From Escherichia phage vB_EcoS_PHB17, in the sequence record NC_054892.1: 48,939 bases of DNA; one strand, 5' to 3'. Numbering within the stretch: the stretch's first letter is position 1; each line of letters begins with the position of its first letter. Of the stretch, positions 3,638-48,439 are shown piece after piece. A program made the translations under genes and the position numbers. The notes beneath the pieces are model-generated. The model was not told the DNA's origin. It saw only the letters and a program-made list of their open reading frames with translations, and searched no databases.

Positions 3638-3657
3638 ATAGCACGAATTGCTAAAAC
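3638..3657 (+). promoter_or_regulatory. conserved motif copy ATAGCACGAATTGCTAAAAC
   Basis: Exact consensus; followed by hairpin with TATAGT. Confidence 0.5.
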
Positions 3658-3711
3658 ACGAAATCGTGGTTGCGGTATAGTAACCAAATACCAAACAACG
3701 AGGAACTAAGC

Positions 3712-5425: not shown

Positions 5426-5607
5426 TGTGGAACTGGAAAAAGCTGTTACTGACCGTTTTTCTTGCCCTGCTTGGTTCAACGCTGATTGAAGGTTTTACTA
5501 ACTTCCTGGGTGCGTTGGTTATGGCAATCGCCTATTCGATCCCGTCCTACTATGACGGCAAGAAAGCCGGAGGCCGTGAAGTGTTCGAGCTAATCAAGCG
5601 CAAATAG
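5425..5607 (+). CDS. small membrane protein (60 aa)
   Basis: ATG 5425 overlapping previous stop; two hydrophobic helices; stop TAG is part of motif copy. Confidence 0.45.
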   Translation: MWNWKKLLLTVFLALLGSTLIEGFTNFLGALVMAIAYSIPSYYDGKKAGGREVFELIKRK

Positions 5608-5623
5608 CACGAATTGCTAAAAC
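5604..5623 (+). promoter_or_regulatory. conserved motif copy ATAGCACGAATTGCTAAAAC
   Basis: Overlaps TAG stop; hairpin AGGAGCA..TGCTCCT containing TTATAG. Confidence 0.5.
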
Positions 5624-5688
5624 TAAATCAGGAGCATTTGTTATAGTGCTCCTCGTTGAGTTAAGCAACCAATCAAGGAGAAAAGGAA

Positions 5689-6176: not shown

Positions 6177-6913
6177 AATACGTAAAACCTACCACTAACG
6201 GCGTTGATTTCACGGCTGGCAAACTTTACGAAGTGATCAAAGAGATTTCAGGCGCTCGCGTTATCGTTAAAAACGACGAAGGGGAGGAGGTTATTGTAAG
6301 GATTGACGGAAAAGAATCAGTGCGCCTTAATTGGCCTGGAAAGTTCAACCTGGTTGAATTCCCCACTATTTCGGAAGCCGTTAAACATGTAACGGCGTCA
6401 GTGTTGAGAACTGAGTGCAATCCGGGCGGAACCATCTATAACGCAGTGAGAGAAAGTGATCACTTAAAGGCGGCTCGCCAAATCGCTGATAACGCGGCAA
6501 AGCTGGCGGCTCAAGTTGCATACCCGAAAAACGGTTATTTCCTCAATAGCAAAGGCCAGTTGGAGCAGTGGCAGAATGGGGAGCTTGTTGTGACAATCGG
6601 CAACGTTGATTCTACGGCGGCAAAAGGTGAGGGTTGGCGCGTTCACAATGCAGGTATGCAAATCACTAGCGGAAACTTTAAACCGAGAGAGCTAACCGTT
6701 GTCCTGAATGGTAAGCAGTACACCGAAAGCCAGATCGCAAAGCTGGAAAAGGAAGCGGAACAACACAAGGCTGATTGCATCAAGGCGGAGGCTGTTATTG
6801 ATCAGCTTTATGACATGTTTCCGCAAGTGCGAAATGCAGAGCAACTAATTGCAGCCGTCAAGAGTGCGAAAATCTTCTCTGATGCGTTTCTTGAACTGCA
6901 AAAAGTCAAATAG
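6173..6913 (+). CDS. hypothetical protein (246 aa)
   Basis: ATG 6173 overlapping previous stop; long ORF ending in TAG of motif copy. Confidence 0.55.
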   Translation: MKYVKPTTNGVDFTAGKLYEVIKEISGARVIVKNDEGEEVIVRIDGKESVRLNWPGKFNLVEFPTISEAVKHVTASVLRTECNPGGTIYNAVRESDHLKAARQIADNAAKLAAQVAYPKNGYFLNSKGQLEQWQNGELVVTIGNVDSTAAKGEGWRVHNAGMQITSGNFKPRELTVVLNGKQYTESQIAKLEKEAEQHKADCIKAEAVIDQLYDMFPQVRNAEQLIAAVKSAKIFSDAFLELQKVK

Positions 6914-6929
6914 CACGAATTGCTAAAAC
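6910..6929 (+). promoter_or_regulatory. conserved motif copy ATAGCACGAATTGCTAAAAC
   Basis: Overlaps TAG stop; hairpin GAGGACA..TGTCCTC. Confidence 0.5.
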
Positions 6930-6989
6930 TTCCGCGAGGACATTTGTTAAAGTGTCCTCATTGAAGCGAAGCACACAAAGGAGCTTAAA

Positions 6990-9489: not shown

Positions 9490-11058
9490 ATGCTTATTTG
9501 GGAAGATTTGACAGCGGCGCAGAAACGCGCCATTAAAGAAATGAGCGAGCTTTCATTTGAAAAGATGATCCGCATATGGTTTCAACTCCTGCAAGGCCAG
9601 AAGTTTTTAAGCAACTGGCATTTCAGCTACCTATGCAGTGAGGTAGAGAAAATCATTTCCGGCGAATCGCAAAACGTGATCTTTAACATCACGCCAGGTT
9701 CGGGTAAAACGGAAATCTTTTCGATCCATATGTCGCCGTATGCGTCAATCAAAAGCAAAAAGGTGCGCAACCTTAATCTTTCGTTTAGTGATGGCCTGGT
9801 GCAACAGAACAGCAACAGGATCAAGGAGATTGTTGGATCTCCAGAGTGGCAAGAGTTATGGCCTGGCAAGCTGGCGAAAGCCAGCGCCAAAGATCTGATT
9901 GTGCAGGACGAAAACGGGAAAGTTAAGTTGCAGGTGAATTCCCGTTCAATTGGTGGACAGGTTACGGGCTTGCGTGGCGGCTATATGGATGATGGTTTTA
10001 CGGGGATGTTGGTACTTGACGATCCAGACAAACCAGATGATATGTTTTCGAAGGTGCGCCGTGAAGCAATGCAAATGCGCCTAAAAAACACCGTGCGATC
10101 ACGTCGAATGAAAGACACAACGCCAATCGTAATGGTTCAGCAGCGGCTACACGTCAATGATTCTACTTACTTCATGACAAGCGGCGGCATGGGCGGCATT
10201 CAGTTTAAAGTTGTGAGCATTCCGGCGCTAGTTACGAAAGAATACCGCGAAACGCTTCCTGAGTGGTTAATTCCTGAATTTGATCGTGATGTGCTGACAA
10301 GCGAGCCTGTTTATATTGACGGCGTGGCGCATTACTCTTTTTGGCCTGCAAAGGAGAGCGCAAAAGACCTTTTAGCGCTACGCGAGGCCGACCCATACAC
10401 TTTTGCATCACAGTATCAGCAGCATCCTATAGCGTTAGGCGGCAACGTGTTTAAAGTGGATTGGTTCCAGTATTACGGCGACGGCGAGAAATGCACGCTA
10501 CCAAAACCGGAACGCTTTGAGTACACATTTATTACGGCGGATACAGCGCAAAAAGTAGGCGAGCTAAACGACTACACTGTTTTCTGTTATTGGGGCATGT
10601 ACAAAAACCGCGTTTACTTCATTGATGGCGTGCGCGGCAAATGGGAAGCGCCAGACCTTGAAACAAACTTTGTGGCTTTCGTTAATCAGTGCTGGAAGCG
10701 CAACAAAGAATGCGGCTCCTTGCGTAGAATCCACGTCGAGGATAAAGCGAGCGGAACGGGCTTGATTCAGGGGGCAAAGAAAAAGATCCCTATTGATATA
10801 AATCCCGTTCAGCGCAACACGGACAAAGTAACACGCGCGATGGATGCAGCACCAGTTATGAGGGCGGGGCGCGTTGCATTGCCTGAAAACCATCCAATGC
10901 TTGCGGAGCTACTCGCAGAGGTGGCTGCGTTCACGTTCGATGATTCTCATCCAAACGACGATATCGTTGATAACATCGTTGATGCGGTCAACGTGGAAAT
11001 GAACCTCGCAGACGATCCGGTTGCACGCATGAAAAAACTGGCTGGATTGAAGAAATAG
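9490..11058 (+). CDS. terminase large subunit (522 aa)
   Basis: ATPase P-loop TPGSGKTE in N-terminal half, acidic nuclease-type C-terminal half; first of packaging/head genes. Confidence 0.85.
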   Translation: MLIWEDLTAAQKRAIKEMSELSFEKMIRIWFQLLQGQKFLSNWHFSYLCSEVEKIISGESQNVIFNITPGSGKTEIFSIHMSPYASIKSKKVRNLNLSFSDGLVQQNSNRIKEIVGSPEWQELWPGKLAKASAKDLIVQDENGKVKLQVNSRSIGGQVTGLRGGYMDDGFTGMLVLDDPDKPDDMFSKVRREAMQMRLKNTVRSRRMKDTTPIVMVQQRLHVNDSTYFMTSGGMGGIQFKVVSIPALVTKEYRETLPEWLIPEFDRDVLTSEPVYIDGVAHYSFWPAKESAKDLLALREADPYTFASQYQQHPIALGGNVFKVDWFQYYGDGEKCTLPKPERFEYTFITADTAQKVGELNDYTVFCYWGMYKNRVYFIDGVRGKWEAPDLETNFVAFVNQCWKRNKECGSLRRIHVEDKASGTGLIQGAKKKIPIDINPVQRNTDKVTRAMDAAPVMRAGRVALPENHPMLAELLAEVAAFTFDDSHPNDDIVDNIVDAVNVEMNLADDPVARMKKLAGLKK

Positions 11059-11076
11059 CACTAATTGCTAAAAAAC
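11055..11076 (+). promoter_or_regulatory. conserved motif copy ATAGCACTAATTGCTAAAAAAC
   Basis: Overlaps TAG stop of terminase large subunit; followed by TGATATAAT and terminator hairpin. Confidence 0.5.
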
Positions 11077-11085
11077 TGATATAAT

Positions 11086-11113
11086 CAGGGCTGGACTTTT
11101 CCAGCCCTTTTTA
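11086..11113 (+). terminator. rho-independent terminator-like hairpin
   Basis: AGGGCTGG-ACTTTT-CCAGCCCT then TTTTT, between terminase and portal genes. Confidence 0.6.
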
Positions 11114-11129
11114 TTATGGAGATCAGGTT

Positions 11130-12410
11130 ATGACTGAAAAAAACAAACTTGTTAAGGCCGATGGCTACAATGAAACATTCGGTTGCGGGAAACGCGTTGA
11201 GCAACCTTTCTACATGCAAGGTATTGCAAAAACCACGCTTGCGACTTTTTACGAGCAAGACGGGTTAGCAAAGAAAATCGTTGATGTGATCCCGGAAGAT
11301 ATGGTTACGCCAGGGTTTAGGGTTGAGGGGATCGCAGATGAGGCAGCTTTCCGTTCCCTATGGGATGAGAAGCGACTCAACGCAAAAATCATCGACGCTC
11401 TTTGCTGGTCACGTTTGTTCGGCGGCGCTGCAATCGTTGCGGTTGTGCAAGATGGGCGCATGTTGAAATCACCAGTTAAGGAGGGAGCCGTTTTAGAGGA
11501 TATTCGTGTTTATGATCGCTATCAGGTTCGAGTAGAAAAGCGTGAGACAAACGCGCGGAGCGTGCGTTATGGGGAGCCTGTTTTGTACACGATTTCACCA
11601 GGGAACGACATTCCAGAATATCAGGTGCATTACACGCGAATTTGCATCATTGATGGTGAGCGTCTACCTAACGAGCAGCGAAAAAACAATGATGGTTGGG
11701 GCGGTTCAGTCCTCAACAAGCGACTGATTGAAGCCATTCACGATTACAACTATTGTGAAGAACTGGCGAGCCAGCTTTTACGACGCAAACAGCAAGCAGT
11801 GTGGAAAGCGCGAGGCCTGGCGGATTTATGCGACGACGACGAAGGGGTTGCAGCAGCGCGGTTGCGTTTGGCGCAGGTTGACGACGAAAGCGGCGTAGGA
11901 AAGGCAATTGGTATTGACGCCAATGATGAGGAATACGAGGTTCTAAACTCTGATGTTGCGGGTGTTCCTGAATTCCTGCAAAGCAAGTTTGATCGCATCG
12001 TCGCCTTAACTGGTATTCATGAGATCGTACTGAAAAACAAGAATACTGGCGGCGTAAGCGCAAGCCAAAACACCGCGCTTGAAACTTATCACAAACTTAT
12101 TGATCGCAAACGTGGAGAGGACTACAAACCAGTTTTAGAATTCATCCTCCCTTTCCTGGTGAGTGAATCAGAATGGTCTATCACGTTCGAGCCGCTTTCC
12201 GTTCCGAGCGACAAGGATCAGGCGGAAGTATTAAACAAAAACGTTGATTCTGTCACTAAGCTGGTGCAGGATCAGCTAATCGACACGGAAGAAGCGCGCG
12301 ACACGTTGCGCTCTATGGGTTCGATTATCAAGATCAAAGACACTGATAACATCAAGCTACCGAAACCGGAAGAAACGGAACCGGAGCCAGGAACGGAGAA
12401 TAATCAATGA
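11130..12410 (+). CDS. portal protein (426 aa)
   Basis: Size and position directly after terminase large subunit; acidic C-terminus. Confidence 0.75.
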   Translation: MTEKNKLVKADGYNETFGCGKRVEQPFYMQGIAKTTLATFYEQDGLAKKIVDVIPEDMVTPGFRVEGIADEAAFRSLWDEKRLNAKIIDALCWSRLFGGAAIVAVVQDGRMLKSPVKEGAVLEDIRVYDRYQVRVEKRETNARSVRYGEPVLYTISPGNDIPEYQVHYTRICIIDGERLPNEQRKNNDGWGGSVLNKRLIEAIHDYNYCEELASQLLRRKQQAVWKARGLADLCDDDEGVAAARLRLAQVDDESGVGKAIGIDANDEEYEVLNSDVAGVPEFLQSKFDRIVALTGIHEIVLKNKNTGGVSASQNTALETYHKLIDRKRGEDYKPVLEFILPFLVSESEWSITFEPLSVPSDKDQAEVLNKNVDSVTKLVQDQLIDTEEARDTLRSMGSIIKIKDTDNIKLPKPEETEPEPGTENNQ

Positions 12411-15354: not shown

Positions 15355-15373
15355 GTTTAACAAAAAGTGCTAT
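15355..15373 (-). promoter_or_regulatory. conserved motif copy, reverse orientation
   Basis: TTAACAAAAAGTGCTAT on plus strand between paralog 2 and major capsid genes. Confidence 0.4.
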
Positions 15374-19089: not shown

Positions 19090-19108
19090 TTTTAACAAAA
19101 AGTGCTAT
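19090..19108 (-). promoter_or_regulatory. conserved motif copy, reverse orientation
   Basis: TTTTAACAAAAAGTGCTAT on plus strand between major tail terminator and chaperone gene. Confidence 0.4.
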
Positions 19109-25006: not shown

Positions 25007-25054
25007 CGTCCGTATAATGGGTGAACCGATAAACAGCACAAAAGGTTAAAACAC

Positions 25055-31517: not shown

Positions 31518-31536
31518 ACAGCACAAATAGCTAAAC
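31518..31536 (+). promoter_or_regulatory. conserved motif variant ACAGCACAAATAGCTAAAC
   Basis: Directly after TAA stop of exonuclease; hairpin ACGGGG..CCCCGT containing TGATATAAT. Confidence 0.45.
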
Positions 31537-31591
31537 AAATGAAATACGGGGTGATATAATTCATCCCGTAAGTTAACCAGAGGAATCTAAT

Positions 31592-34914: not shown

Positions 34915-34935
34915 ATAGCACGAATTGTTAATGAC
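34915..34935 (+). promoter_or_regulatory. conserved motif copy ATAGCACGAATTGTTAATGAC
   Basis: Plus-oriented copy 16 nt from start of minus-strand tail fiber gene; second partial copy at 34946-34960. Confidence 0.4.
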
Positions 34936-34962
34936 AAGGCCGATAATAGCACTATTGCGCCC

Positions 34963-34988
34963 ATAAAAAAACCCCGCCGGAGCGGGGC
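34963..34988 (-). terminator. rho-independent terminator (minus strand)
   Basis: CCCCGC-TCCG-GCGGGG plus T8 on minus strand after primase-like gene. Confidence 0.7.
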
Positions 34989-35002
34989 AAAGTCAGTGGC
35001 AA

Positions 35003-36006: not shown

Positions 36007-36450
36007 TTAGCTATTTGTGCTGTTTTCAAAGTCGGACGCACGAACAACGCGGAGCATTTCGCGCTTTTCACACTTGAGTGTAAGCGGTTTTCCGTTGCTA
36101 TCAAATTTCAGATCTGGGCGGCAGAATGAAGCGCGATAACCCTTGCAGCCTTGCCGCTTGTAATCTTGATGCACCTTTTGAGCGCCTTGCGCTGAAATCA
36201 TTCCGCGTTTCTTCCATTGCTGGATCGTCTGAAACGACACTTTAAGGCGGCGTGCCATTTCTGATTGAGTGCCATAATATTCTAACAGGATGTCAAGCCG
36301 CGCACGCAATCCGGCCTTTACTTCATCTTTCAGCACGTAGTAACCTGTTTTGCGGCGGCGTGGCTTTTTGTCTTTTCCGCGTCGAGTTCCGTTATTACCA
36401 TTGATTGTGCGTTTATCTACTTCACCAGTTGAAACAGCGATTCTTTTCAT
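36007..36450 (-). CDS. helix-turn-helix DNA-binding protein (147 aa)
   Basis: HTH segment QSEMARRLKVSFQTIQQWKKRG; basic N-terminal region; start at MKRIAVS. Confidence 0.6.
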   Translation of the reverse strand: MKRIAVSTGEVDKRTINGNNGTRRGKDKKPRRRKTGYYVLKDEVKAGLRARLDILLEYYGTQSEMARRLKVSFQTIQQWKKRGMISAQGAQKVHQDYKRQGCKGYRASFCRPDLKFDSNGKPLTLKCEKREMLRVVRASDFENSTNS

Positions 36451-36463
36451 AGTAAATTCCCCA

Positions 36464-36483
36464 ATAGCACTTTTTGTTAAAAT
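36464..36483 (+). promoter_or_regulatory. conserved motif copy ATAGCACTTTTTGTTAAAAT
   Basis: In divergent region between HTH gene and helicase; TGTAGTATAGC downstream. Confidence 0.5.
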
Positions 36484-36539
36484 CACTTATGTTTAGGCTT
36501 GTAGTATAGCGTCAAACGAAACAACGTTAAAGGTTTAAA

Positions 36540-38542: not shown

Positions 38543-38962
38543 ATGGTTACTGACAAGGGCGATTATCTGGAGTATTACGAGCGCGATCCGAGCGACACGC
38601 GAAAGGAAGATTCTCACCAGGTTGATTGTGTGGCGTGGTTGCGCCACTTTTATCCCTGGCTTTTATTCTGGCATACAGTAAACGAGGGGCAAAAGACGAT
38701 CACCAGCGCATTGAGGGATGAGCAAGCAGGATTGAGAAAGGGCGTTAGTGATTTCGTTATCCTGATTGGTATTAACAGCCGTTACCCATTCGCGGCTATT
38801 GAACTAAAGCGCGTAAACAAGTCTGGTAAAGGCAAGGCGTCACCAGTCAGCGACGAACAAAAGGGATTTTTACGCGATGTTCGCCAGCGTGGAGGATTCG
38901 CGGCGGTGGCTTACGGATTCGAGCAATTCAAATTAGCGATTGCAGATCTTTTGCATAAATAG
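38543..38962 (+). CDS. VRR-NUC domain nuclease (139 aa)
   Basis: DFVIL ... ELK PD-(D/E)xK-type motif; GGGAG RBS. Confidence 0.6.
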   Translation: MVTDKGDYLEYYERDPSDTRKEDSHQVDCVAWLRHFYPWLLFWHTVNEGQKTITSALRDEQAGLRKGVSDFVILIGINSRYPFAAIELKRVNKSGKGKASPVSDEQKGFLRDVRQRGGFAAVAYGFEQFKLAIADLLHK

Positions 38963-38978
38963 CACGAATTGCTAAAAC
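38959..38978 (+). promoter_or_regulatory. conserved motif copy ATAGCACGAATTGCTAAAAC
   Basis: Overlaps TAG stop of VRR-NUC gene; hairpin GGCGCA..TGCGCC then CATAAT. Confidence 0.5.
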
Positions 38979-39148
38979 AGGCGCAACGGAATGCGCCATA
39001 ATGCACACATCGAAACAAACAAGGAATTAATCATGAAATACATTTTTAATATGGCGGCAAGCGTTGTATTGGGAGCGGCGGTTACTGCTTTCTTTTTGTG
39101 GGTTATCTCCCTGGCTGGCAACTTTAACGGATTTTGAGGATCAGAAAA

Positions 39149-39895
39149 ATGGCTAAAGACGTTTTAGATAATTCAACTATTGACGGCGTGGCAGAAGTTG
39201 ACGAAATGGATTTTCACGAATTGCAATATGGTAAGTATTCAGATATTGCATTGCGTTCTGGCGGTCACTATCAACCAGTAAGAGAAAACACTTATTTCAA
39301 GGTTAGCGGCAACCGTTATGCTGGAAGTAATACGCCGGACGTTGTGCGGGATTTGTGGGCGACTCCTAGCGAGGTTGTGGAATACATGGAAAGCCGTTTC
39401 GGGAAATATGATCTTGATGCGGCGGCAAGCGACGAAAACAAAGTATGTGATAAATTCTACAGCAAGGAAACGAACTGTTTAAAACGCTGGTGGGGTAGCA
39501 AAAAGCACGTATGGTTAAACCCGCCTTACTCTAACCCCGATCCGTTTGTACTCAAAGCCATTGAGCAAATGGAGCATGACAACCAGATTGATATTTTATT
39601 ACCTGCTGATAACTCAACAGCATGGTTTAAAGACGCGCAAAAGAATGCGGCGGAAATCATCTGGATTACTGGCGACACATGGAAAGGCGAGGACGGGCGC
39701 GAATACAGCCGAACAGGACGATTAGCCTTTATTTCTGGCTTGACTGGCGAACCAGTGCAGGGAAACAATAAAGGTAGCGTGATTTTCGTCATGAGAACAC
39801 TTAAAGAAGGTGAGCAACAGAAAACTCATTATGTTGCCATTACTGAAATCTGTCCATCTGTTAAAAATCGCCGCGCAAAGGCAAGGAGTATTTAA
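39149..39895 (+). CDS. dam: DNA N6-adenine methyltransferase (phage Dam family, 248 aa)
   Basis: DLWATP, DLDAAA and NPPYS motifs; ATG 39149 after GAGGA. Confidence 0.8.
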   Translation: MAKDVLDNSTIDGVAEVDEMDFHELQYGKYSDIALRSGGHYQPVRENTYFKVSGNRYAGSNTPDVVRDLWATPSEVVEYMESRFGKYDLDAAASDENKVCDKFYSKETNCLKRWWGSKKHVWLNPPYSNPDPFVLKAIEQMEHDNQIDILLPADNSTAWFKDAQKNAAEIIWITGDTWKGEDGREYSRTGRLAFISGLTGEPVQGNNKGSVIFVMRTLKEGEQQKTHYVAITEICPSVKNRRAKARSI

Positions 39896-40125
39896 TGTTA
39901 TCAGAAAATAATCAATGGGATCTTTTTGTTGGCATGGTTTGCGGTCTGCTGGCAAAGCATGAATATAACGGAAATGTTTATGAAATGGCTACCAGCCTGG
40001 ATATGACTTTTGAGGAGGTCAAGCAAAAGCCGATTCATTTGTGGATTGAGCACCTTGAGGCCGAATTGATGGAATACAAAAACAGCCGCGAGGGGCGCTA
40101 TAACTTCAACTCAAATTTCCACTAA
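39895..40125 (+). CDS. hypothetical protein (76 aa)
   Basis: ORF overlapping Dam stop. Confidence 0.45.
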   Translation: MLSENNQWDLFVGMVCGLLAKHEYNGNVYEMATSLDMTFEEVKQKPIHLWIEHLEAELMEYKNSREGRYNFNSNFH

Positions 40126-40145
40126 ATAGCACTAATTGCTAAAAC
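40126..40145 (+). promoter_or_regulatory. conserved motif copy ATAGCACTAATTGCTAAAAC
   Basis: Directly after TAA stop; hairpin CCCGC..GCGGG. Confidence 0.5.
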
Positions 40146-40200
40146 CCGCTCCGGCGGGTTTGTTATTATGCACTCATCGAAACGAAACAAGGAAAACAGA

Positions 40201-40377
40201 ATGATTATTTACAGCAAATCAGCATTTGACGCCGCGCAATCAATCGCACGCGATGCGGTCGAGGGAAAATCTGAAAATGGTTTTGAATTTGATTGGTCTG
40301 CTGCAATGGTTATGCTTCGCGTTGCATACGGTCATTATCCTTTAGATTTCGCGGAGAAATATTATCGTGAAGGTTGA
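40201..40377 (+). CDS. hypothetical protein (58 aa)
   Basis: ATG 40201 with AAGGAA RBS after motif and hairpin. Confidence 0.4.
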   Translation: MIIYSKSAFDAAQSIARDAVEGKSENGFEFDWSAAMVMLRVAYGHYPLDFAEKYYREG

Positions 40378-40615
40378 AACAGGACGCCAGGCAGTTTGGC
40401 AACACGCAAAGGAATGCGGGTTAGATGAGAAAATAGCACTAATTGCTAAATACTTCGACATCAAGGATGTTAGTATTATTGGCAACGGCAAGATGTCATA
40501 TATTGACGAAAGGCCGCGAAAGGTTCACAGGGTTCCCGCCGTTCCATCAATCCAGTTTTTCAGGGATGAAAAGGCAAAGGCGGAGGCCGCAAAGAAAGCA
40601 CAAAAAAGAAGGTAG
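40367..40615 (+). CDS. hypothetical basic protein (82 aa, GTG start)
   Basis: ORF with alternative start; a motif copy is translated in frame as IALIAKY. Confidence 0.3.
   Translation: MKVETGRQAVWQHAKECGLDEKIALIAKYFDIKDVSIIGNGKMSYIDERPRKVHRVPAVPSIQFFRDEKAKAEAAKKAQKRR
40433..40452 (+). promoter_or_regulatory. conserved motif copy inside a predicted ORF
   Basis: ATAGCACTAATTGCTAAATAC lies within ORF 40367-40615. Confidence 0.4.
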
Positions 40616-40711
40616 GTTGATTGTATGCGTGGTTATTTTGCTGTATGCTTTGCGCCGATTGTCGGATGGCTGGCAATGTATTACCTGATTATGATGTAAG
40701 AGGATCTCAAA

Positions 40712-41830
40712 ATGGCTTTACAAAAAATTACCGATGAGCAGTTTATTGAAGCACGCAAAGAAGGAAAAACCTACAAGCAGATCGCGGAGGAGTTCGGATT
40801 GAATGTTCGCAGCGTTGAGCGCCGCGCGGCTCGCCTGGCTCGCTCCGGTGAAACTGAAATTAAAGGCGTTCCAGGTTATGCGGTTGTGCGCGAATCTGTA
40901 CTAACCCGCGCCAATGGTGAGGAAGTCATGCGTTGGACTATCACCAACAAAGATAAGGAACAATTAGAGGCGCTGATGCAAGCCGCTATGGAGGCTTTCG
41001 CGGAGGAAGTGCCACGACTGGAAGCGCAACCGGAAACGCGTGTTGATTACTCTGAAAGCCTGGCGCTATATCCAATCTTTGATATGCACTTAGGGGCAAT
41101 GGCGCACAAGCATGAATGCGGCGAAAATTGGGATACAGCAACAGCGGAACGAGTGATGAATAATTTCTTTGATTACTCAATCGCCCATGCGCCAAATAGT
41201 GAAAAAGCGGTGCTCCTGATTGGTGGCGATATGCTCCACAGTGACGGCCTGGAAGCGGTGACACCTGCAAGCGGTCACGTTCTGGATCAGGATAGCCGGT
41301 ACGCAAAACTTGTTTATGTTGCAATCCGAGCGACGCGCCGCGCAATCAGTATTATGCTTACAAAGCATAAAGATGTTGAAGTGCAGATCATTGAAGGTAA
41401 TCACGACCAATCAGGAATGATCTGGCTTCGTGCAGCAATGGCGGCTGCATATGAAAACGAGCCTCGCGTAAATGTTGATGTTTCGCCGCGCGTAGTGCAT
41501 CACACGCAATATGGTAAAACCTTCCTCGCATATCATCACGGGCACACAGTGCGCAAGCCGGAAACGCTGTTAATGATGTGTGCGGCAGACTGGCGGGAGG
41601 ATTTCGGAAAATCTAAAATGATGTATGCGCATGTAGGGCATTATCATCACCAGACTGTAACCGAAACCAGTTTAGGTATCGTTGAGGTGCATAGCACTAT
41701 GGCAGCAAAAGACGCTTACGCGGCGCGTGGTGGCTGGCGTTCTCGCCGTCGAGCGGCGGTTATTATTTACGACAAAGAGCATGGCGAAATTGGGCGCTTT
41801 ATGCACTATCCTGAAATGATGGAGAAATAA
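40712..41830 (+). CDS. HTH domain fused to calcineurin-like metallophosphoesterase (372 aa)
   Basis: N-terminal HTH (KTYKQIAEEFGLNVRSVERR); phosphoesterase motifs DMHLG, GGDMLHSD, EGNHD, HHGH. Confidence 0.65.
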   Translation: MALQKITDEQFIEARKEGKTYKQIAEEFGLNVRSVERRAARLARSGETEIKGVPGYAVVRESVLTRANGEEVMRWTITNKDKEQLEALMQAAMEAFAEEVPRLEAQPETRVDYSESLALYPIFDMHLGAMAHKHECGENWDTATAERVMNNFFDYSIAHAPNSEKAVLLIGGDMLHSDGLEAVTPASGHVLDQDSRYAKLVYVAIRATRRAISIMLTKHKDVEVQIIEGNHDQSGMIWLRAAMAAAYENEPRVNVDVSPRVVHHTQYGKTFLAYHHGHTVRKPETLLMMCAADWREDFGKSKMMYAHVGHYHHQTVTETSLGIVEVHSTMAAKDAYAARGGWRSRRRAAVIIYDKEHGEIGRFMHYPEMMEK

Positions 41831-41832
41831 AT

Positions 41833-42003
41833 ATGAAAGTACGATGCACACGGAACACCTCAACCGCATTACCGTTTATTGTTGGCGCTGTTTATCGTGC
41901 TGTTAAACTTTACGGTGATTTGTACGAGATCCGAGATGGTCAAGGAAGCGCAATCCAGGCACCATTAAACGGGTATTACCTGACCTTTTCACCGATTGAA
42001 TAA
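41833..42003 (+). CDS. small hypothetical protein (56 aa)
   Basis: ATG 41833 after GGAGAAA; below track cutoff. Confidence 0.3.
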   Translation: MKVRCTRNTSTALPFIVGAVYRAVKLYGDLYEIRDGQGSAIQAPLNGYYLTFSPIE

Positions 42004-42026
42004 ATAGAAAAATCATCACCTTACAA

Positions 42027-42054
42027 GGGGCTGGCATTTGCTAGTCCCTTTTTT
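42027..42054 (+). terminator. rho-independent terminator-like hairpin
   Basis: GGGGCTGGC-ATTT-GCTAGTCCC (2 G-U pairs) plus T6, before lysis cassette. Confidence 0.6.
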
Positions 42055-42130
42055 GTTGTTCCGTTTTTGTTCGAGGCTGGTTAGTATATATTCACTTATC
42101 TATTGACTTTTTAACTTTGAGGATCTAATC

Positions 42131-42346
42131 ATGAAAGAATTTGTTAACGCTGCAACTATGGGAACTGGCGGTTCATCACTAACGGGCGCTGCAACTGGTC
42201 AAATCACAGTAGCGGTTATCAGCCTTGTTCTCATGGCGGCTTTTGGATTATGGGGCGCTTATCTTCGCTGGAAGGATAGCAAGGCATTTCAAGAGGCGTT
42301 AGATCGCGGAGACATTCAAAAGGCTATAGAGATTAGAGGTAAGTAA
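42131..42346 (+). CDS. holin (71 aa)
   Basis: Small protein with transmembrane segment and charged C-terminus, directly upstream of endolysin. Confidence 0.7.
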   Translation: MKEFVNAATMGTGGSSLTGAATGQITVAVISLVLMAAFGLWGAYLRWKDSKAFQEALDRGDIQKAIEIRGK

Positions 42347-42841
42347 ATGACGATAAAAACAAGGATAACGGCGGGGGCGTTTGGTGTAGCCCTCGCTTTG
42401 ACTTCCCCACTCCTGGAGGAGATAGAGGGGATCAAGTATAAGCCGTACAAAGACATTGCTGGAATCTGGACGGTTTGCGCTGGCATTACCGGAAAGGATG
42501 TTATTTTAGGCAAGACGTACACGCAGCGAGAATGCGATCAGCTACTGCAAAAGCACATCAAGATCGCAAAGGATGAGGTTGATAAACGCGTGAAGGTTGA
42601 CATTCCAGACACCATGCGAGCGGCTCTATACTCATTCACCTACAACGCCGGAACCGGAGCGTTTCGCAAGTCAACAATGCTTAAACTGATTAACCAGGGG
42701 CGGCTATATGAGGCGTGCGATCAGCTATGGAACTGGACATATTTCACCAACCCGAAAACAGGCCGCAAAGAGAAATCTAAAGGTTTGCAAAATCGGCGTG
42801 CGGTAGAATTCAAATATTGCGTTAAGGATCTGAAACGATGA
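42347..42841 (+). CDS. endolysin, lysozyme-type with SAR-like N-terminus (164 aa)
   Basis: [25 protein letters not shown] lysozyme core (Glu/Asp/Thr catalytic pattern) preceded by weakly hydrophobic N-terminal segment. Confidence 0.85.
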
Positions 42842-43224
42842 AACGATTAGCGGCAATCATGATGGTTATGGCTCTTTCCGGTTGTTCAGCGTCAAGCGCT
42901 CTGACTGGTTTGATTGGCAGTAAGCCGGAAGTAACAGCCCAAGCCGGAGCGGAAAACATAAAGCAAACCGTGGGCGTGACAGCAAAGCAGGACACCAGCA
43001 GCAAGCAGGAAACCAGCTTTGAAAAGTCTAACGTTGGAAAGGTTGACACCTCAAACAAAAAGAAGGTGAGCGCCTCCAGCATTCAAGCTGAAACAATCAC
43101 GGCGGAAAGGATAGAGATCAGGAATACAGATAGCGGGTTAGATTGGAAGGTTAGCGCGTTATTCTTTGCTGTAATTTCTATCGTGCTGTTTCTCATCGGA
43201 TACAAAAGCAAGAAAGGAGCCTAA
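42838..43224 (+). CDS. unimolecular spanin (128 aa)
   Basis: Lipobox ALSGC at N-terminus plus C-terminal transmembrane helix, the arrangement known from phage T1. Confidence 0.8.
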
Positions 43225-45337: not shown

Positions 45338-45391
45338 CTGAAATTCTCCTTTCTTGTTGCCGCTAAGTATAACGGCAACAATACTACCCTG

Positions 45392-45410
45392 TTTTAACAA
45401 AAAGTGCTAT
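45392..45410 (-). promoter_or_regulatory. conserved motif copy, minus strand
   Basis: Overlaps TAG stop of 45407-45652; hairpin GTTGCCG..CGGCAAC with TATACT, then AAAGGAG and ATG 45337. Confidence 0.5.
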
Positions 45411-48370: not shown

Positions 48371-48420
48371 CTCTCTGATTGGTTTCGATGGGGTTATTAT
48401 GCCAACTAACCCCGATCCTG

Positions 48421-48439
48421 TTTTAACAAAAAGTGCTGT
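48421..48439 (-). promoter_or_regulatory. conserved motif variant (ACAGCAC), minus strand
   Basis: Directly after TAA stop of 48441-48716; hairpin GGGGTTAG..AACCCC with CATAAT. Confidence 0.5.

Follow-up and report, generated by a model that had tools for sequence, protein, structure and literature searches.

Does a repeat copy inside an open reading frame of a phage betray a wrongly predicted gene, is it merely tolerated there, or does the same stretch of DNA carry a regulatory signal in addition to a protein sequence? The question arises from Escherichia phage vB_EcoS_PHB17 (NC_054892.1), whose sequence of 48,939 nt, here called the window, corresponds to the complete IMG/VR contig IMGVR_UViG_2974745880_000001. 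According to the matches of the region, it is a T1-like siphophage of the family Drexlerviridae. A megablast search with positions 39000-43000 returned Klebsiella, Escherichia and Salmonella phages with 76-85% identity, and the gene order Dam methylase, small ORFs, phosphoesterase/exonuclease, holin, endolysin and spanin is common to these relatives. The initial annotation had noticed a motif copy at 40433-40452 within the ORF 40367-40615 and offered two solutions: either the ORF is spurious and the motif an ordinary intergenic copy that serves the downstream phosphoesterase gene, or the motif is tolerated inside a gene.

The motif belongs to a 21-nt direct repeat, aaATAGCACnnnTTGnTAAAA, which was described in 2024 in coliphage TLS, where 21 copies were found, 18 intergenic ones being listed (DR1-DR18) and three 'wholly within genes' being set aside; it was said to occur also in T1, Rtp and Rogue1, and stoperator, enhancer site and UP element were named as possible functions (PMC11447400). 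In the literature searched on T1-like phages the repeat is described in this paper alone, and promoter, start-site, transcriptome or reporter data for T1-like phages or Drexlerviridae were not found in the literature searched. The repeats of the window share with those of TLS the consensus, the A/T/G subtypes, the transcription-aligned orientation and the same syntenic intergenic positions, but the TLS homologue of the ORF, gp64, does not contain a copy (score -7.9).

The 82-aa gene and its embedded repeat copy

The ORF 40367-40615 on the + strand encodes a conserved 82-aa protein that matches PHROG 2817 (E 7e-34) and has tblastn homologues in 846 phage records, with identities down to 42%. 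As noted before, its start codon is GTG, and its first 11 nt overlap the preceding ORF (40168-40377). Contrary to the initial annotation, an RBS-like sequence is present, the Shine-Dalgarno-like GGAG box at 40353-40356 (+ strand), 10 nt before the GTG, and relatives are purine-rich at the same place. The position of the start codon is conserved, with ATG at the same codon in most relatives. Furthermore, the conservation and codon-substitution pattern, named in the initial annotation as a check on the ORF, points to purifying selection, with a dN/dS of 0.05-0.09 against close relatives at a dS of 0.6-1.3, where synonymous sites are near saturation. These comparisons show that the ORF is a real protein-coding gene. 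The reading that it is not a gene and that the copy is an ordinary intergenic promoter can appeal to the GTG start and to the original T1 RefSeq record, which leaves the homologous stretch blank (gap 40262-40455). Nevertheless, many newer phage records annotate the ORF, and in view of the PHROG match, the homologues, the conserved start and the low dN/dS this reading is refuted and appears hardly conceivable.

Within the 82-aa protein, conservation is highest in the segment DIALIAKYFDIKDV, and this holds for every clade. A Pfam search with the protein gave only a sub-threshold match to DUF7334. Its AlphaFold model, of moderate confidence (pLDDT 76), has a beta-alpha-alpha-beta-beta arrangement followed by a C-terminal helix, and a fold search with this model against the PDB returned nothing significant (best E 1.3), the matches to lambda Cro being not significant either. 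The C-terminal third exists in several unrelated versions among close relatives. At the other end, nucleotide similarity to the Changchunvirus phages (W011D/PaulSarasin) starts from 40368, i.e. at the start codon of the gene, with unrelated genes upstream, which marks a mosaic boundary at this point.

The 18-mer ATAGCACTAATTGCTAAA lies at 40433-40450, 66 nt into this gene, and is the core of an exactly matching copy of the 21-nt T1-like direct repeat, AAATAGCACTAATTGCTAAAT, at 40431-40451 (+ strand); the span 40433-40452 given previously adds the letters TA. The presence of the copy in the ORF and its reading as IALIAKY are thereby confirmed. The 18-mer is read as ATA GCA CTA ATT GCT AAA TAC, and the whole repeat as K-I-A-L-I-A-K-(Y), in the only sense frame of the motif that is free of stops, the other two containing them. 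With a weight-matrix score of 30.0 bits the embedded copy falls within the range of the 21 other copies of the window (23.2-35.2 bits), is identical to the copy at 40124-40144 in 20 of 21 positions and fits the consensus. It is followed by the 20-nt spacer tacttcgacatcaaggatgt (40451-40470, + strand), which represents the modal spacing of the repeat family, and by the -10-like hexamer TAGTAT (40471-40476, + strand), which is part of the codons GTT AGT ATT (V S I). The DNA of this embedded module (44 bp) encodes the most conserved part of the 82-aa protein, …IALIAKYFDIKDVSI…. A hexamer was counted as -10-like when it had A2, T6 and at least 4/6 matches and lay 19-21 nt after the repeat; TAGTAT at offset 20 is of this kind, and the spacer ends with TGT (40468-40470), which corresponds to the TGn of an extended -10. 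The intergenic copy at 36464, which precedes the helicase gene, is followed by the same hexamer at the same offset.

The embedded copy is located on the + strand within a block of + strand genes and is thus co-oriented with the surrounding transcription. It lacks the GC-rich spacer hairpin, which most intergenic copies carry, and the CATCGAAAC leader. Intergenic copies are placed about 76 nt before a start codon with a leader; here, the next starts are at 40626 and 40712. In a weight-matrix scan of the window, 40433 was the sole full-scoring copy wholly inside a credible gene. An in-ORF copy at 48422-48439 was considered as a second embedded case and rejected, the host ORF with its TTG start being over-extended.

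The repeat family in the window

The exact 18-mer is present at 11055, 40126 and 40433. When up to three mismatches were permitted, 21 matches were found in the window compared to 0.06 expected from shuffles, and 0 of 100 shuffles reached 21; a search with four mismatches and the weight-matrix scan add few copies, giving 21-23 oriented copies overall, which generally point toward downstream genes. A -10-like hexamer is found 19-21 nt after the motif in 18 of the 21 copies other than the embedded one, in 13 of them at exactly 20 nt, as compared to a background rate of 5% for such a hexamer (binomial p about 4e-21). This fixed distance, which is not reported in the TLS paper (PMC11447400), suggests that the repeat is the upstream half of a composite promoter. 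Judged from its position, the repeat behaves as an element at approximately -50 to -33 of such a predicted promoter, which has no -35 hexamer within usable range.

Most intergenic copies have a GC-rich hairpin in the spacer, several are without it. The sequence of the stem differs between phages while the pairing is kept, and the T1 and TLS records annotate these spacer hairpins as rho-independent terminators. The T-rich -10 region is at the same time the putative U-tract of the terminator, i.e. a compact terminator-inside-promoter design. Canonical cassettes continue with a conserved leader (CATCGAAAC..GGA) and then a start codon. Hence, with terminator hairpin and -10 combined, a canonical cassette is predicted to end the upstream transcript and to start the next one. 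The nearest canonical cassette to the embedded copy is located at 40126-40169 (+ strand), with the motif at 40126-40143, the hairpin at 40142-40161 and the -10 hexamer TATTAT at 40164-40169; the leader CATCGAAACGAAAC..AGGA and an ATG at 40168/40202 come after it, and syntenic copies exist in all relatives examined.

The arrangement of the cassettes varies. The hairpin is found in the spacer at 40126-40169, 38959-39002, 2030-2073 and most others, as well as in T1 at 38973-39001 and 39998-40024. In another subset (1526-1575, 3638-3690, 5604-5650, 6910-6960, 31518-31570, 45360-45410(-) and 48390-48439(-)) the hairpin arms flank the -10, so that the hexamer is in the loop (GGAGCA-tttgttatag-TGCTCC). 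In the atypical copies at 11055-11130 and 34915-34990, just 7-9 nt separate the -10-like hexamer from the repeat, and a terminator comes next; the copy at 34915 is antisense to flanking - strand genes. Two further antisense copies are situated in the + strand structural block, at 15356-15373(-) and 19091-19108(-), one of which corresponds to TLS DR7. Downstream of 19091-19108(-) on the - strand, TAGGAT is followed by a bidirectional terminator, which would permit a very short antisense RNA at most. Weak partial copies with 20.8 bits each are found at 39502-39522 and 25033-25053; one of these overlaps the part of the Dam methylase gene that encodes the KKHVWLNPPY motif and is not accompanied by a -10, and the other, the counterpart of TLS DR8, precedes the tail-fibre gene. 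In five cassettes (4608, 5604, 6910, 11055 and 38959) the TAG of the repeat (aaATAGcac) is the stop codon of the upstream gene, so a partial overlap of repeat and coding sequence is routine, and only the copy at 40433 is fully internal.

Constraint on the embedded module among relatives

To judge how readily the peptide alone could generate the motif, all synonymous encodings of KIALIAKY were enumerated and weighted by the codon usage in the window phage. The observed DNA is the top-scoring encoding (P about 1e-4), and the chance that an encoding of KIALIAKY reaches the score of the weakest genuine copy is 0.7%. Synonymous resampling of the 72 genes (1000 times) gave 0.003 in-gene sense matches per genome with a score of at least 30 bits, and 0.016 with at least 26 bits. 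Several codons of the embedded module are rare in the phage, i.e. ATA (10%), CTA (9%) and AGT (10% of Ser codons); CGA is also rare.

Synonymous conservation was analysed in a clade of ten sequences, picked by similarity to the window, with a dS to the window of 0.6-1.3 where estimable. In the motif and the -10, 6 of 8 codon columns are invariant in this clade, compared to 3 of 33 elsewhere in the gene (Fisher p = 4.5e-4, Mann-Whitney p = 3.5e-4). The -10 codons GTT, AGT and ATT are invariant in 10/10 sequences, and all five spacer codons between the two blocks vary. The sole amino-acid change in the motif, Leu/Arg by CTA/CGA (5:5 among the relatives), falls on the naturally variable eighth base of the motif and interconverts two common motif subtypes. 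Moreover, an ATCGCAC variant of the embedded copy, present in three relatives (PaulSarasin/Bas09 carries the ATC), occurs also in a complete intergenic cassette of phage UP30 (+1656). When viral contigs were scanned for the pattern of the embedded module, 9 contigs including the window were found; these were left out of the conservation test because they had been ascertained by the motif itself. From codon variation, these data show that the motif and -10 blocks are under DNA-level selection. Hence, the second solution of the initial annotation is right but says too little, since the motif and its correctly spaced -10 are actively maintained at synonymous sites within a clade of relatives, and this with rare codons (ATA, CTA/CGA, AGT).

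The distribution of the module is limited. The in-gene site scores 18.6-30 bits in the window, BananaBelafonte, PMBT35, KLB26, P-K7R, K50PH164C1, RCIP0096, Pocis76, W011D/PaulSarasin and one IMG/VR phage, and 12.7-21 bits in Tunavirus, where T1 has ATAGCATTAATTGCTAAA followed by TAGCAT. In most Tunavirus relatives (T1-type) the 3' half of the in-gene motif is degenerate. In Tunavirus all four bases are found at the third position of the fifth motif codon, a base that never varies among the intergenic copies; the element thus seems to have decayed in Tunavirus or to be weak. In TLS, Webervirus and other clades the peptide is kept and the motif is absent (-18 to +1.5 bits). No compensating copy was found before the exonuclease gene in these motif-less clades, which makes the element dispensable. 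Two syntenic intergenic positions upstream of the gene hold the repeat (25-35 bits) in every clade examined. By this distribution, the embedded element is lineage-specific.

An alternative-frame ORF (40443-40688), which starts at the TTG of the motif, was also considered and rejected, because the synonymous constraint lies in two short blocks and not along the overlap. In T1, the gene ST17 is an other-frame ORF overlapping the 3' end of the homologous gene, and its translated sequence looks unrelated by inspection. An N-terminally truncated product from the ATG at 40493 was rejected as well; this ATG has no ribosome-binding site and the Met is Leu in relatives.

A candidate internal promoter and its alternatives

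We consider 40433-40450 to be a dual-coding element, whose most likely role, which we hold as probable though by no means certain, is that of an internal promoter for the 24-aa ORF, the exonuclease gene and the DUF7244 gene. The same 44 bp that encode part of the 82-aa protein would then also serve as a promoter composed of the 18-21-nt upstream element, a 20-nt spacer and the extended -10 TGtTAGTAT, with transcription expected to start near 40483. The upstream element might be read by the alpha or sigma subunit of the host RNA polymerase, or by a phage or host protein. Several points stand against a promoter. No -35 hexamer exists at a workable distance: a TTGACA-like sequence 16-19 bp from the -10, as in canonical sigma-70 promoters, was not found, the hexamer at 17 bp being AAATAC, and TTGCTA lies 22 bp from TAGTAT. 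A promoter scan did not find a + strand promoter at the embedded site, and the site has neither the conserved leader nor the hairpin. The missing hairpin and leader would, on the other hand, fit a signal in the middle of a gene that serves for initiation only.

The embedded copy begins only 307 nt downstream of the canonical copy at 40126, which makes it look redundant. The nested transcript would either add to the transcript begun at this canonical copy or be uncoupled from it. It would comprise a small ORF at 40626-40700 (+ strand), which encodes the hydrophobic 24-aa peptide MRGYFAVCFAPIVGWLAMYYLIMM, has a AAGGTAGG box upstream and holds the first start codon after the predicted internal transcription start; the records of BananaBelafonte and K50PH164C1 contain small CDSs of a similar kind, and T1 has the 95-aa gene ST17 at this position. 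Next would come the metallophosphoesterase/DNA-repair exonuclease gene at 40712-41830 (+ strand; PHROG 704, E 4e-147, with a weak Metallophos match), which is presumed to be the main target of the internal promoter; it is the downstream phosphoesterase gene of the initial annotation, and that the embedded copy serves it is plausible. The N-terminal HTH of this protein (40712-40890) matches Sigma70_r4_2 with 24.3 bits, below the cutoff of 25.7. The DUF7244 gene at 41833-42003 (+ strand; E 4e-26) is the last of the unit, and the strong intrinsic terminator at 42025-42050 (+ strand), an 11-bp stem followed by TTTTTGTTGTT, would end transcripts from the 40126 promoter and from the embedded promoter alike.

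Other readings accept the gene and explain the copy differently. It could be the site of a regulatory protein, i.e. a stoperator roadblock, a repressor site or an enhancer, which modulates how much transcription from the 40126 promoter reads through into the exonuclease gene. The stoperator and enhancer readings are raised by the TLS authors themselves (PMC11447400), the partial dyad TAGCA-N5-TGCTA would suit a dimeric protein, HTH proteins are encoded nearby (e.g. the PHROG 2856 'transcriptional regulator', 36007-36486), and the DNA-level selection tells us that the DNA matters and is silent on its role. However, a binding site alone explains neither the -10-like hexamer 19-21 nt downstream in 18 of the 21 copies nor the invariant GTT AGT ATT beside a drifting spacer, and the dyad is not kept in the A-type and TTGTTA variants. 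We therefore judge this reading as rather unlikely, even if it deserves to be kept in mind. It is unlikely, too, that IALIAKY is merely encodable as the motif, which drifted or was copied in and has no function. Such a by-product would agree with the loss of the element without compensation in many relatives and its degeneration in most Tunavirus, and also with the notion that the protein constraint came first, as the peptide is conserved in clades without the DNA motif. But the low probability of the encoding (1e-4), the genome-wide expectation of 0.003 and the codon invariance of both blocks, where the other synonymous sites of the relatives are near saturation, speak against it.

The conservation might finally reflect an RNA or single-strand DNA structure, or a pause at rare codons in the 82-aa gene, with the likeness to the repeat being incidental. 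An 81-nt region folds slightly better than shuffles (z = -2.07, 5/200 as good), RNAalifold predicts a 6-bp stem between TGCTAA and TTAGTA, precisely the two conserved blocks, plus a few further pairs, and ATA, CTA/CGA and AGT, which are among the fixed codons, are rare. Yet the consensus fold reaches only -5.3 kcal/mol with compensatory changes in 0/11 pairs, the remaining single-sequence fold is not kept in relatives, and neither structure nor pause accounts for an 18/18 match at modal spacing to a motif that is used about 20 times elsewhere, with 0.003 expected genome-wide; we regard this as very improbable. Some further candidates were rejected. A sigma-54 promoter (TGGCAC-N5-TTGC) differs from the motif's TAGCAC-N3-TTGC, in which the spacing is 2 nt short and AG replaces GG. 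A boxB-like hairpin and TTGCTA as a -35 were ruled out by spacing and by the lack of compensatory changes, and gene conversion from the neighbouring copy by the fact that embedded and upstream copies differ in subtype in several relatives.

If the embedded copy is indeed an internal promoter, it would have parallels. Many T4 middle and late promoters as well as phiX174 promoters are located inside the coding sequence of an upstream gene. As proposed here, these combine a promoter over a translated frame with a nested transcript and a constraint shared between protein and signal; different from a -35 or a MotA box, the upstream element of the embedded copy is a phage-family-specific 18-21-mer, and it is predicted from sequence. 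The MotA-dependent middle promoters of T4 likewise combine a good sigma-70 -10 with a conserved box further upstream (TTGCTT/TGCTTtA-like), while a usable -35 is missing. The MotA box is centred near -30, approximately 12 bp from the -10, and acts with sigma appropriation. Unlike it, the repeat box ends 20 bp from the -10 and reaches to -50. Compared to an UP element, an A/T-rich tract at about -59 to -38 with which the C-terminal domain of the RNA polymerase alpha subunit makes contact, the motif spans approximately -50 to -33 and has an invariant core, AGCAC, that is not rich in A/T; a likeness to the UP consensus is seen in T-type copies only. The stoperators of mycobacteriophage L5 resemble the repeat in being many oriented, asymmetric sites between and within genes, aligned with transcription, an analogy raised for TLS (PMC11447400). 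Unlike the repeat, L5 stoperators are not paired with a -10 at a fixed distance. T1-like phages, for their part, are virulent, and we know of no repressor in them.

A more far-reaching, and so far tentative, possibility is that T1-like phages possess a promoter class of their own, defined by the repeat, which consists of a -10 and a conserved element at -50 to -33 without a -35 and is used by a MotA-like or class-II-activator-like factor of phage or host. The embedded copy would be a naturally recoded instance of such a class, in which ATAGCAC, TTGCTAAA and the hexamer would be the bases the factor needs, while base 8 and the spacer would be free, and the factor might be expressed from few canonical sigma-70 promoters, e.g. 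that at 430-458. A near-consensus sigma-70 promoter (TTGACA-17-CATAAT, 11/12 matches) is located there, upstream of the first gene (DUF7174, 491-958); it precedes the first three genes and the first repeat copy (1526), and its TLS parallel is P01. These three genes may be the sole ones expressed without the repeat, and we can only speculate about a cascade in which an early product from the sigma-70 promoter activates the repeat promoters. The lysis cassette (holin 42131) has a sigma-70-like sequence, TTGACT-18-AATCAT at 42103-42132, in place of a repeat copy, and T1-type and some other phages carry a repeat cassette at the lysis-equivalent position, approximately +1650 from the embedded site.

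The finding itself is modest, since promoters within coding sequence are well known in compact phage genomes. For annotation it means that the 82-aa ORF should be kept and that repeats found inside genes should not be discarded. T1-like phages of the Drexlerviridae are common in therapy and model collections. Because the embedded copy must also encode protein, its pattern of fixed and free bases reveals the positions that are under DNA-level selection. Hence, the embedded copy represents a natural mutational footprint, which supports the promoter reading of the whole repeat family.
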